DNA from: a virus
Taxonomy: Duplodnaviria > Caudoviricetes
Virus record (IMG/VR): IMGVR_UViG_3300037961_006162
Coordinates: 1 to 59,055 of that record
Strand: one strand, 5' to 3'
Length of the DNA: 59,055 nt
Below, one piece after another: positions 26,943 through 55,016 of this stretch. Position 1 is the first letter of the stretch. Every line of letters begins with the position of its first letter. The notes beneath the pieces are model-generated. The model saw only the letters and a program-made list of their open reading frames with translations. It was not told the origin of the DNA and did not search any database. A program made the position numbers and the translations under genes.

Positions 26943-27016
26943 AGCCAACTAACGGACTTGAACCGTTGACCTGAGCTTTACAAAAACCCTGCTCTATCCA
27001 GCTGAGCTAAGTTGGC
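26943..27016 (-). tRNA. tRNA-Thr(UGU)
   Basis: GCCAACT/AGTTGGC acceptor stem, anticodon loop TTTGTAA, GTTCAAGTC T-loop; no encoded CCA. Confidence 0.92.
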
Positions 27017-27325: not shown

Positions 27326-27410
27326 TGCGAGTGGGGGGACTTGAACCCCCACGACTTTAACAGTCAACAGATTTTAAGTCTGGTGCGTCTACCGATTCCG
27401 CCACACTCGC
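27326..27410 (-). tRNA. tRNA-Leu(UAA)
   Basis: GCGAGTG/CACTCGC acceptor stem, anticodon loop CTTAAAA, long variable arm, GTTCAAGTC; no intron, no CCA. Confidence 0.93.
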
Positions 27411-53970: not shown

Positions 53971-53998
53971 AAAAAAAGAGAGGTTTCTCAACCTCTCT
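53971..53998 (-). terminator. Rho-independent terminator of the riboswitch unit
   Basis: AGAGAGGTT-GAGA-AACCTCTCT followed by a T run. Confidence 0.85.
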
Positions 53999-54002
53999 CG
54001 TA

Positions 54003-54095
54003 TTATTTGGTGAGAACTTTAATCTCTCCATATATCAATGAAAGGAATGCTACAGAACCAAGGGATACGATCCCAGCAATTTGTAGTGCTTCCAT
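54003..54095 (-). CDS. 30-aa single-pass membrane peptide
   Basis: Hand translation MEALQIAGIVSLGSVAFLSLIYGEIKVLTK; starts 1 nt after the upstream stop. Confidence 0.6.
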   Translation of the reverse strand: MEALQIAGIVSLGSVAFLSLIYGEIKVLTK

Positions 54096-54096
54096 A

Positions 54097-54261
54097 TCAC
54101 TTTACGTAAGTGCGACCACGATAGCAGTAGGTGCCGTGAGTTTCCTCAGGTGCCTCATGCACTTTGCAATCAACTCCACGATACTTAGTAACATGGATTT
54201 GTGCGTCGTGCAATGCTGCTGCCTTGTCGATTTGCTTTTTGATGAGTGTAAGGGTGTTCAT
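54097..54261 (-). CDS. DUF4278-like small protein (two YRG motifs)
   Basis: Hand translation MNTLTLIKKQIDKAAALHDAQIHVTKYRGVDCKVHEAPEETHGTYCYRGRTYVK; AGGAG SD at 54270-54274. Confidence 0.78.
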   Translation of the reverse strand: MNTLTLIKKQIDKAAALHDAQIHVTKYRGVDCKVHEAPEETHGTYCYRGRTYVK

Positions 54262-54298
54262 TTGTTTTACTCCTGAAATACTAGGGTGAATTAACTCC

Positions 54299-54480
54299 CG
54301 TTCCTTCAGTCGTTTGCGTCCCAGTTACATTCAGGTGTTGCTTCTTGAATTACTTCAATAAGCTCAACCTTGACTTGATTTTCCATATTCTGATTAGTAT
54401 CAATACGACTGATTATCTCAGCAGCATCAGTACAAACAATACCAGAATAAAGTAACAATTTAAATAACATGGGATGAACG
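54299..54480 (-). ncRNA. Glutamine riboswitch-like aptamer 2 (Downstream-peptide/glnA type) with ~137-nt P2 loop
   Basis: 5' CGTTCATCCC ... 3' GGGACGCAAACGACTGAAGGAACGGG; P1 CGTTC/GAACG; P2 TCCCA(T)GTTA/TAACTGGGA; upstream of a DUF4278-like ORF. Confidence 0.75.
54306..54470 (-). CDS. 54-aa ORF nested in aptamer 2
   Basis: Hand translation MLFKLLLYSGIVCTDAAEIISRIDTNQNMENQVKVELIEVIQEATPECNWDAND; GGAG 10 nt upstream. Confidence 0.7.
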   Translation of the reverse strand: MLFKLLLYSGIVCTDAAEIISRIDTNQNMENQVKVELIEVIQEATPECNWDAND

Positions 54481-54483
54481 CTC

Positions 54484-54718
54484 CGTTCCGCGACTTACTT
54501 GCGTCCTATGTTAGCACACTATCACACTTTCCATCAACCTTCGTTCTAAAATAACCTATAAGGTTATATTTTGTACGACGATCCAAGTTGTCGTCCATAA
54601 GGACTTCAACTCGTTTCTGGAGGAACCTTTCACACGACATATGCCATCCATAAGGAGTGCCGTCTGCATGATGGGCAAGATTCAGTGCCAACAGTAGTGC
54701 TAACATGTTGGATGAACG
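54484..54718 (-). ncRNA. Glutamine riboswitch-like aptamer 1 with ~179-nt P2 loop
   Basis: 5' CGTTCATCC ... 3' GGACGCAAGTAAGTCGCGGAACGG; perfect 10-bp long-range stem ATGTTAGCAC/GTGCTAACAT. Confidence 0.7.
54506..54706 (-). CDS. 66-aa ORF nested in aptamer 1 (signal-peptide-like N-terminus, 2 Cys)
   Basis: MLALLLALNLAHHADG...SCERF...GKCDSVLT; the upstream ATG at 54727 overlaps the -10 box, so the start is set at 54706. Confidence 0.7.
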   Translation of the reverse strand: MLALLLALNLAHHADGTPYGWHMSCERFLQKRVEVLMDDNLDRRTKYNLIGYFRTKVDGKCDSVLT

Positions 54719-54725
54719 TATGGCC

Positions 54726-54754
54726 ATTATAGACCGAACACATTATATAGTCAA
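54726..54754 (-). promoter_or_regulatory. sigma70 promoter whose predicted start site is at the 5' end of aptamer 1
   Basis: TTGACT-N17-TATAAT, 7 nt before CGTTCATCC. Confidence 0.82.
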
Positions 54755-54761
54755 GTAGTTT

Positions 54762-54777
54762 TGTAACTTATAATACA
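54762..54777. promoter_or_regulatory. Putative NtcA binding site
   Basis: TGTA-N8-TACA (tGTAacttataaTACa) just upstream of the -35 box. Confidence 0.6.
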
Positions 54778-54779
54778 GT

Positions 54780-55016
54780 TTACAAAAACATACCTTTCTC
54801 ACTCATGTACTGGAGAGTTTCTTTCATACTACCGATGTGCTTAAACCCAATATTAACTTGAGGATACTCAGCATCTTTACCAAACTCTGCCTCAAATCCT
54901 TTTTGGGTGAAGTGGTGATTCAATTTATACTCCAAAAAATCACCACCCAATGATTCCAAGAGTTCTGCCATACGCTGACACTCTTGACTACCGTTGCTAT
55001 AAATTACTGCTGCCAT
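54780..55016 (-). CDS. Glutaredoxin-like protein with degenerate active site
   Basis: VIYS...SQEC, YPQV.IG..HIG; single Cys. Confidence 0.65.
   Translation of the reverse strand: MAAVIYSNGSQECQRMAELLESLGGDFLEYKLNHHFTQKGFEAEFGKDAEYPQVNIGFKHIGSMKETLQYMSEKGMFL

Follow-up and report, generated by a model that had tools for sequence, protein, structure and literature searches.

A candidate nested double glutamine aptamer of T4-like cyanophages with whole genes in its hairpin loops

Riboswitches are held to be rare in phages. In cyanobacteria, glutamine riboswitches of types 1 and 2 turn on translation of a DUF4278 (IF17-like) gene when glutamine rises, as described in the available text of two studies (PMC6212724; PMC6698751), and tandem glnA RNAs were noted in 2010 (PMC2864571, available text). 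For cyanophage genomes, the accessible part of McCown et al. 2017 gives only two glutamine aptamers (PMC5473149), and a table in PMC9964418 lists a cyanophage glutamine aptamer Rfam match of 99 nucleotides (nt) and 44 bits. Here we describe a locus in a 59,055-nt stretch of viral DNA (Duplodnaviria; Caudoviricetes; IMG/VR record IMGVR_UViG_3300037961_006162, positions 1 to 59,055; hereafter the window), in which two glutamine-aptamer-like repeats at 54718-54298 on the minus strand each have a hairpin that encloses a whole open reading frame (ORF), of 66 and 54 amino acids (aa). We conclude, with a probability of roughly 0.68, that T4-like cyanophages share a conserved RNA domain encoded at this locus: a nested double glutamine aptamer, placed at the 5' terminus of an early-type transcript whose last two genes, ORF3 and ORF4, are also small.

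On the minus strand the element reads CGTTCA-TCC-AAC-ATGTTAGCAC, the 66-codon frame (ORF1), GTGCTAACAT-A-GGA-CGCAAGTAAGTCGCGGAACGG and AG, and then CGTTCA-TCCC-ATG, the 54-codon frame (ORF2) ending TGG GAC GCA AAC GAC TGA, and AGGAACGGG; a TTTCAG stem partner, an AGGAG Shine-Dalgarno sequence, a 54-aa ORF, a 30-aa ORF and a terminator-like hairpin follow (Table 1). An earlier reading of the same DNA, made from its letters without database searches (the sequence-only reading), had pointed out the repeats and their complementarities, and its coordinates, given for the minus-strand sequence, all proved correct: ATGTTAGCAC (54706-54697) is the exact reverse complement of GTGCTAACAT (54517-54508) and encloses 179 nt, and TCCCA(T)GTTA (54474-54465) pairs with TAACTGGGA (54327-54319) around 137 nt. 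The minimum free energy (MFE) fold of 54720-54255 includes both of these long-range hairpin closures, with a z score of -4.6, and none of 100 shuffles folds equally well.

The element is common among phages. A search with a 23-nt core returned at least 120 viral contigs, with 104 unique cassettes parsed among the matches listed, and the later topology counts draw on 250 unique complete cassettes; a 47-nt junction sequence is shared by 426 of 50,697 phage records, none of which annotates it as RNA. The cassette corresponds to the gp196-gp197-gp198 region of Syn9 and is also present in S-8S55, S-IOM18 and S-TIM5, and in four complete phage genomes each ORF family has one member only, at this locus. 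When the search was made with the ORF1 protein instead, 541 relatives were found at sites in viral contigs; the best 80 of the 541 were kept, 65 of them unique and evaluable, and both aptamer halves are present by strict pattern in 59 of these 65 and on inspection in the other six. Among the 104 listed cassettes the first hairpin is short (11-46 nt from CGTTCA to ACGCAAG) in 70 and ORF1-bearing in 34, the second is short in 7 and ORF2-bearing in 97, and all four combinations occur: compact/ORF (63+1), ORF/ORF (32+1), compact/compact (6) and ORF/compact (1). An example of the compact/compact form, which makes up only 6 of the 250 parsed cassettes, is CGTTCA-TCCAG-GAAA-CTGGA-CGCAAGTAAGTCGCGGAACGG-AT-CGTTCA-TCCC-TCCG-GGGA-CGCAAACGACTGAAGGAACGG.

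Cellular genomes present a different picture. In host genomes, 10 of 12 parsed loci are single aptamers (64-74 nt) whose P3 is a plain hairpin, and the double form was not seen in host chromosomes among the host loci examined. ORF2 relatives are found in 1 of 401 genomes of the picocyanobacterial order, solely on a phage-like contig of 194 kilobases (kb), and a DNA pattern for the ORF2-type element matched five stretches, all in metagenome-assembled genome (MAG) or draft-assembly records, including a 194-kb Synechococcus MAG contig. ORF1 relatives at E<=0.01 occur in 3 of the 401 genomes, as one chromosomal pair, one weak match (E 0.004) and one in a cassette that has the two aptamer halves (L134; genome G263, contig C3), in which the strand after AAGUA is AGCCGACUC, the second linking strand is AAAGCCGACU and ORF1 ends at the core TAA. 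The chromosomal homologue is a 99-aa protein (E 2.3e-20; L135:1477-1776, L137) whose hydrophobic N-terminus is longer and which also has a C-terminal tail, present as two copies about 43 kb apart on the chromosome-sized contig C1 of genome G053, with no aptamer motifs nearby. A loose long-loop aptamer pattern matched 70 of 401 cyanobacterial genomes, but its reversed control was also widespread and the listed hits lie in GC-rich coding DNA, so that this search is uninformative.

The natural variation in loop length also bears on the glutamine-riboswitch likeness that the sequence-only reading had claimed. Against gathering thresholds of 35 bits (RF01739) and 33 bits (RF01704), the window has no glutamine-family Rfam match, nor any at E<=10 on 54150-54850, and it scores 9.6 and 4.7 bits, respectively; that covariance models would miss the ORF-bearing form was thus rightly foreseen. 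Replacement of each loop by a tetraloop had been suggested as a test, and the compact relatives, whose loops are naturally short, answer the question that it posed. Three of four pass RF01739 (L016, 43.6 bits; L041, 40.3; L034, 38.4; L040 fails with 30.9), and one of six compact or half-compact loci passes RF01704 (L034, 34.0 bits; the others score 24.2-27.2), so that the compact versions match both models and the likeness of the repeats to glutamine riboswitches is supported. Taken singly, compact repeats reach 24-34 bits against RF01739 or RF01704, and the best Rfam alignment of the compact forms joins the 5' half of the first repeat with the 3' half of the second. With only 6 of 250 cassettes compact enough for the covariance model, standard annotation misses what would be a near-universal regulatory RNA of T4-like cyanophages.

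One claim of the sequence-only reading did not stand, namely that the repeats are two self-contained tandem aptamers. In a locus found through ORF1 (L171), the first 3' strand is GCAACG and the second 5' strand is CGTTGA. Across the 250 cassettes, the four fifth-pair positions show the haplotypes CGCG (173), CCGG (69) and TCGA (8) and nothing else, and every haplotype keeps Watson-Crick pairing between the first 5' and last 3' strands and between the first 3' and second 5' strands. Within the repeats, by contrast, the fifth pair is mismatched in both helices in 77 of the 250 cassettes, that is, in every non-CGCG haplotype, with no intermediates. The argument for nesting is carried by these missing intermediates in scans that were built to find them. 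A scan for anything other than G at the fifth-pair position of the first 3' strand returned at least 120 loci, and all 102 unique contexts listed have C together with the compensating G in the second 5' strand; the reciprocal scan, for changes in the second 5' strand opposite a wild-type first 3' strand, returned none. Changes in the last 3' strand were found at 17 loci, all to A: 10 are TCGA, 5 more are TCGA and also hold a large insert, 1 is TGCA, and 1 is too short for a haplotype to be assigned; in loci varying at that position the outer pair goes from C-G to U-A.

The same pattern is evident in an alignment of 36 sequences (A5) picked 14/14/8 by haplotype, in which the haplotype proportions are set by design: all 828 cells of the nested structure are paired, compared with 93.2% for the side-by-side structure, with the fifth pair of both side-by-side helices broken in 22 of the 36. 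The fifth pair of the outer closing helix is CG in 28 and UA in 8, its other four pairs being invariant, and the covarying pair of the inner hairpin is CG in 22 and GC in 14. The repeats are further linked by P3, a predicted helix of 5 base pairs between the AGUCG that follows AAGUA in repeat 1 and the CGACU that precedes GAAG in repeat 2; it is 100% paired in A5, the sole variation being GC (34) or GU (2) at one pair. The two halves of a loop-E-like motif likewise lie in different repeats, AGUA in the first and GAAG in the second. Covariation between repeats thus shows closing-helix strands exchanged between them, so as to give what would be one nested double aptamer and not two independent ones. 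The outer junction would be a three-way junction of the type-1 (glnA) kind, in the order CGUUC-A, hairpin a, CGCAAGUA, P3 and GAAG-GAACG, and the inner junction would be circularly permuted and would cap P3, in the order GAACG-GAG-CGUUC-A, hairpin b and CGCAAA.

Several observations weigh against nesting. Either topology is compatible with the haplotype of the window, CGCG, and the case for nesting rests on the window's relatives; their variant haplotypes may come from only about three mutational events in related phages. The change in P3 is one-sided (GC to GU) with no double change, and P3 is not evident in the rare AGCCGACUC variant (2 of 250 cassettes, and also L134). The linking strand is CGCAAGUA where the type-1 consensus has CGGAAGUA, and about one-third of the sequences have AAAG rather than GAAG, compensated in the 3' stem, which favors that stem over the loop-E motif at this base. 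The rival arrangement is a pair of independent side-by-side aptamers, each closing on its own strands and regulating its own nested gene and the next gene: CGCG is also the commonest haplotype (173 of 250) and permits such closure, each repeat has its own CGUUCA, hairpin, CGCA strand and GGAACGG, and the scores of single compact repeats, together with the passing of RF01704 by L034 (34.0 against 33), are in keeping with it. We nevertheless regard this arrangement as unlikely, as the 77 cassettes with both within-repeat fifth pairs mismatched have perfect cross-repeat pairs, the loop-E halves are divided between the repeats that P3 links, and the best Rfam alignment spans both. A side-by-side fold with four of five pairs could persist as a minor alternative conformer.

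The nested double aptamer appears to have remained under RNA-level constraint in the presence of the genes. Both hairpins directly follow CGUUCA and have a variable loop, as in type-1 RNAs, and the start and stop regions that the sequence-only reading had seen to pair across each gene are conserved in homologues with compensatory changes. In an alignment of 69 second-repeat sequences, 62 of them with ORF2 (A1), the pairs are 98.6% paired and six vary on both sides, a result reached by none of 500 shuffles; the stem of hairpin b has four pairs with changes on both sides and 99.3% of its cells paired. In 26 ORF1-bearing first repeats (alignment A2), the third pair of hairpin a is CG in 17 and UA in 9 and is never broken. 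ORF-bearing forms carry the compensated stems TCCT/AGGA, CCCC/GGGG and GATTATGG/CCATAATC, and the CCCC/GGGG change also turns Asp into Gly. Past the canonical stem, the mean pairing energy between the opening and closing codons of ORF1 is -16.2 kcal/mol, as against -11.2 when partners are permuted among phages, and none of 2000 permutations is as low; for ORF2, the extension beyond the canonical stem is slight (-6.6 against -5.9; 2 of 2000 permutations). In the last five codons of ORF2, third-position diversity is 0 compared with a mean of 0.50, and these invariant third positions indicate an RNA constraint within the gene.

The hairpin loops behave as gene insertion sites. The closest plus/minus pair (L044 and L039) is 96.5% identical downstream and differs by the presence of ORF1, and several distinct ORF2 subfamilies, which look unrelated to one another, occupy one site. 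A third loop, the inner-hairpin "linker" between the repeats, holds a 596-nt insert with a 192-aa ORF in five loci (L361:2256-2831, L362, L364, L365 and L366); this ORF has no Pfam family but matches phrog_314, a homing endonuclease, at E 9.4e-9. Linkers of 63 nt (L074) and 98 nt (L111) end in the same sequence as the insert and look like decayed copies of it. The records Sf-CH5 and Sf-FS3 list homing or HNH endonuclease genes beneath the match. By this comparison the loops of hairpins a and b are apparently peripheral and tolerate inserts.

Such mobility would also suit a dead switch, in which the ORF-bearing aptamers are nonfunctional and their halves are kept as initiation or intergenic signals, or as recombination homologies for cassette swapping. 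The coming and going of ORFs among close relatives, the variety of ORF2 subfamilies and the endonuclease-like ORF in the third loop all fit this explanation, as do loops of 137-179 nt, which slow folding. It is improbable in view of the compensatory changes in hairpins a and b within ORF-bearing forms, the core bases inside ORF2 that are invariant at synonymous sites, and the cross-repeat covariation in ORF2-bearing forms, where the CCGG haplotype is found in compact-1/ORF2 cassettes in 67 of 69 cases and in ORF1/ORF2 cassettes in the other 2.

If the RNA is a live sensor, its most plausible ligand is glutamine. In the available text of PMC6698751, the glutamine-II crystal structure has the ligand contacted by C1, G2:C39, G40, G18-C19 of the CGC strand and G41, and U4:A37 and C5:G36 are the only pairs of that helix with bases that are not >97% conserved. 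All ligand-contact and binding-triplex bases given there are present and invariant in both junctions, and the covarying pair described here corresponds to C5:G36 in that numbering. Both junctions would therefore be expected to bind L-glutamine by this correspondence. A ligand other than glutamine, or a protein, is a quite improbable partner of an otherwise real fold: the double strand-swapped design and the CGCA and AAAG deviations do differ from validated aptamers, but the contact bases are retained, and the downstream gene is of the class under glutamine-switch control in cyanobacteria in the available text of PMC6212724.

That downstream gene, ORF3, had been expected to be of the DUF4278 type. 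The window protein matches DUF4278 (PF14105) at E 0.002 and 18.9 bits, and 55 of 60 ORF3 relatives match at E<=0.01, the best at 1.7e-7; we treat ORF3 as a divergent member of the family, which is not proven. The features that surround its start are suggestive of an expression platform. The 3' stem CUGAAG/CUUCAG adjoins the Shine-Dalgarno sequence and is 99.5% paired in A1, with one pair GC in 29, AU in 24 and GU in 16. The start AUGAAC (window 54259-54264) is complementary to the 5'-strand GUUCAU (54712-54717), a pairing present in the MFE folds of three of four compact leaders; ORF3 starts ATGAAC in 155 of 201 cassettes, and codon 2 is AAC in 84 and AAT in 4, compared with 98 AAC and 66 AAT elsewhere in ORF3. 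By analogy with the cyanobacterial switches we infer that glutamine binding would turn ORF3 on: with ligand bound, the closing helix would take up both the 5' strand and the GAACGG strand, so that neither the ORF3 AUGAAC nor the Shine-Dalgarno stem could hold them, and translation would follow. On the other side of the balance, the 18.9 bits of the window protein fall below the Pfam gathering score of 25.3, and ATGAAC is absent in 34 of 201 cassettes.

Are the enclosed frames genes at all? ORF1 is intact in all 34 ORF1-bearing loci listed, with 65-75 aa, an ATG 9-21 nt from the start of CGTTCA, and a stop in the 3' arm of the hairpin or, in four loci, at the TAA inside GCAAGTAA. The ORF2 frame is open in all 97 loci listed, and in 91 of the 95 first parsed its stop is the TGA or TAA of the core; the other six ORF2 loci are three that stop earlier (L030, L043 and L060), one that reads through in another frame (L058), one with a TTG start and a variant core (L075) and one with a variant core (L092). 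The lengths of ORF2 inserts fall mostly into classes separated by multiples of three (e.g., 152, 155, 158 and 161 nt), nested-ORF diversity is lowest at codon position 2, intermediate at position 1 and highest at position 3, and the ratio of nonsynonymous to synonymous substitution rates (dN/dS) is 0.19 for ORF1, 0.26 for ORF2 and 0.21 for ORF3. Codon-level comparison thus shows both nested ORFs to be real coding genes under purifying selection, as the claim of a whole gene in each loop had implied.

What these genes do is less obvious. ORF1 belongs to phrog_6471 (E 2.7e-35), and PHROGs 6471 and 504, the latter that of ORF2, are without functional annotation. Both families have two invariant cysteines 35-36 residues apart, and profiles from broad alignments match cysteine to cysteine with 90.8% probability and an E value of 1.2e-6, from which ORF1 and ORF2 are apparently homologous to each other; a point against this is that the match is weak in narrower alignments (probability 11.7%, P 0.0026). 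AlphaFold2 models, with a mean predicted local distance difference test (pLDDT) score of 80.4 for ORF1 and 85.7 for ORF2, predict in each a hydrophobic N-terminal helix and then a helical hairpin flanked by the two invariant cysteines. A Foldseek search of these models against the PDB gave no match at E<=0.001, the protein atlas matched viral hypothetical clusters only, and Pfam gave nothing beyond a chance-level Peptidase_C71 match (E 0.15). The empty fold and atlas searches and unassigned PHROGs would fit inserts that are RNA domains with incidental open frames, a very improbable account given frames open in 34 of 34 and 97 of 97 listed loci, lengths in multiples of three, dN/dS of 0.19-0.26, confident AlphaFold2 core models, and a free-standing cellular homologue without an aptamer.

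In the probable nested double aptamer, the way in which the coding genes are built into the loops could lead to reciprocal regulation, to a resetting of the sensor by ribosomes or to little effect. The ORF1 leader is about 12 nt and consists wholly of closing helix and hairpin a. A GGAG precedes ORF2 in 157 of 193 ORF2-form cassettes and in none of 8 compact ones, and coincides with the inner-hairpin loop; the ORF2 AUG closes hairpin b, and both stop codons lie in or beside core strands. Because start regions and stops of the nested genes are built into the fold, folding and nested translation should exclude each other. We infer that the folded, ligand-bound RNA would repress ORF1 and ORF2, whose start regions sit inside it, and that ribosomes translating either ORF would unfold the sensor. 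There are difficulties with this mechanism: GGAG is absent before ORF2 in 36 of 193 ORF2-form cassettes, and about 150-420 nt are transcribed between the 5' halves and their partners, so that ribosomes can load before the fold exists and control may be weak or merely thermodynamic. We put forward only tentatively, as a possibility rather than an expectation, the full model of a strand-swapped sensor with three loops as gene landing sites, in which ribosomes gate the sensor and the bound sensor shuts the nested genes and opens the IF17-like gene. If it is true, one early mRNA would have reciprocal, nitrogen-dependent outputs during infection.

Table 1. Predicted features of the element in the window, in transcript order
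Feature	Position	Strand	Remarks
Sigma70-type promoter TTGACT-17 nt-TATAAT	54726..54754	-	11/12 consensus matches
Outer closing helix, 5' strand CGTTC	54714..54718	-	pairs with 54299-54303 by cross-repeat covariation; A54713 next (CGTTCA 54718-54713)
Hairpin a, 5' arm	54697..54712	-	TCC 54712-54710, AAC internal loop, ATGTTAGCAC with ORF1 start codon
ORF1, 66 aa, phrog_6471, in hairpin a loop	54506..54706	-	TAG stop 54508-54506; ORF list gives a 73-aa frame with ATG within the -10 box; 66-aa form begins at 54706, matching the start in relatives
Hairpin a, 3' arm	54504..54517	-	GTGCTAACAT, unpaired A, GGA; covariation and MFE fold
Outer junction linking strand CGCAAGTA	54496..54503	-	CGC and AGUA half of loop-E-like motif; Rfam alignment of compact relatives
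P3, 5' strand AGTCG	54491..54495	-	pairs with CGACT 54308-54312
Inner hairpin	54476..54488	-	GAACG 54488-54484, loop GAG 54483-54481, CGTTC 54480-54476
Candidate ORF2 Shine-Dalgarno GGAG	54481-54484	-	in inner hairpin
Hairpin b, 5' arm	54465..54474	-	TCCCA, bulged T, GTTA; ORF2 ATG begins with the last A of TCCCA
ORF2, 54 aa, phrog_504, in hairpin b loop	54306..54470	-	as in ORF list; last five codons and stop are the aptamer core; C-terminus W-D-A-N-D-stop, TGA 54308-54306 inside ...GGGACGCAAACGACTGAAGGAACGGG
Hairpin b, 3' arm TAAC-TGGGA	54319..54327	-	covariation
Inner junction linking strand CGCAAA (54318-54313) and P3 3' strand CGACT (54312-54308)	54308..54318	-	
GAAG 54307-54304, outer closing helix 3' strand GAACG 54303-54299, G54298	54298..54307	-	
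3' stem CTGAAG (54309-54304)/TTTCAG (54278-54273)	54270..54309	-	encloses GAACGG strand
ORF3 Shine-Dalgarno AGGAG	54274-54270	-	overlaps 3' arm of 3' stem
ORF3, 54 aa, DUF4278-like (IF17-like), phrog_545	54097..54261	-	start ATGAAC complementary to 5'-strand GTTCAT
ORF4, 30-aa hydrophobic peptide (MEALQIAGIV...), last gene of unit	54003..54095	-	ORF list
Terminator-like hairpin, 10 pairs, then T run	53976..53999	-	

The limits of the transcript follow from its predicted signals. In the window, 7 nt separate the end of the -10 box from CGTTCA, a spacing from which the transcript should begin at the first aptamer bases. Of the 104 cassettes, 72 have a TATAAT-like box upstream of CGTTCA, at 7-9 nt in 71 and at 23 nt in one; a -35 box is additionally present in 63, and the remaining 32 of 104 have variant or late-type boxes. 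In seven loci (L003, L022, L081, L087, L090, L099 and L109) the sigma70-type boxes are replaced by TATAAATA, which resembles a T4 late promoter, and the timing of the cassette may differ in phages carrying it. A palindrome (GGTCTATAATAGACC or a variant of it) immediately ahead of the transcript start often contains the -10 box, as in L016, L033 and L053 and at window 54722-54740. At the other end of the unit, ORF4 has no Pfam or PHROG family, and an ORF4-like start also follows ORF3 in S-IOM18 and S-TIM5 (L003 and L004).

A few other observations concern the same loci. Contigs from metatranscriptome libraries (runs X13, X16, X17 and X18) overlap the cassette in part: ORF1 is represented by 202 nt in X16, with 0 differences, and by 247 nt in X13, and ORF2 is represented as well. 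Such contigs cannot show transcription, ends or strand, and nothing is drawn from them. Splicing across ORF2 was considered for joints skipping about 148-152 nt (window 54320-54473) and was rejected, the short loop letters, e.g., CGAA, matching compact variants of co-occurring phages. A subset of loci (L001:1058-1100, L043, L063, L090, L096, L102 and L127) carries an extra small hairpin of the ACGGATCC..GAAAGC..GAGAAGG type, inserted after GAACGG and ahead of the 3' arm of the 3' stem. A PhotoRC-II RNA match (57.1 bits, cut-off 39) is present at L016:1021-1116, on the same contig as a compact double aptamer, and the window has two transfer RNA genes, at 26943-27016 and 27326-27410 on the minus strand (59.5 and 60.6 bits).

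Among known systems, the outer half of the element is closest to the type-1 glutamine riboswitch (glnA RNA, RF01739; Synechocystis gifB leader). The two have in common the CGUUC/GAACG helix, the A, the hairpin, a CGNAAGUA linking strand, P3 (predicted in the phage RNA) and GAAG-GAACG, as well as the 5' leader position before a DUF4278 gene, and compact phage relatives pass the cut-off; they differ in that the phage P3 is capped by a second aptamer-like junction and not by a small loop, that a 66-aa gene lies in the hairpin loop, and that the linking strand has CGCA and not CGGA. With the type-2 switch (Downstream-peptide motif, RF01704) it shares the CGCA linking strand and the position of GAACGG in the loop of a covarying 3' stem beside the start of a small DUF4278 gene. 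The pseudoknot partner of this GAACGG-bearing stem would be the 5' CGUUC of the first repeat, which in the phage RNA is a whole repeat and two genes upstream; the AGUA/GAAG pair and P3 are extra.

Group I introns carry homing-endonuclease ORFs in peripheral loops, and are likewise structured RNAs that tolerate whole ORFs there; the third loop of the phage RNA holds an endonuclease-like ORF in five loci. The phage RNA, however, is a predicted ligand sensor in an mRNA leader and not self-splicing, and neither ORF1 nor ORF2 is an endonuclease. In tandem riboswitches, the two-aptamer glycine switch being one example, the aptamers lie side by side, each closing on its own strands, and we know of none that holds a gene in a loop. 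Like the glycine switch, the phage leader would have two ligand sites, which are predicted in its case, and a cooperative or sharper response is possible; a link between tandem arrangement and cooperativity is drawn for tandem glnA RNAs in the available text of Weinberg 2010 (PMC2864571). In the literature covered, which includes the available text of PMC9964418, PMC9602691, PMC9004378 and PMC12379486, we found no published account of genes in aptamer hairpins or of strand exchange between repeats; Ames & Breaker 2011, Ren et al. 2015 and supplements lie outside that coverage and may describe the phage tandem form.

The element is thus a widespread, largely unannotated putative riboswitch variant with two unusual features, both of which would be new for riboswitches: aptamer hairpins that enclose whole genes and have the start and stop codons of these genes in their stems, and a natural intramolecular exchange of strands between two aptamer units. 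The proposed control of the IF17-like gene would be relevant to the sensing and resetting of host nitrogen status by phages of the ocean's main phototrophs, and the cassette would offer a compact natural system for studying translation and ligand sensing in competition on one RNA. A structural parallel is the domain-swapped glutamine-II crystal dimer in the available text of PMC6698751, in which two binding units are likewise made from exchanged strands with hybrid closing helices; the dimer is an intermolecular product of crystallization, whereas the phage exchange would take place within one natural RNA and is supported by covariation.

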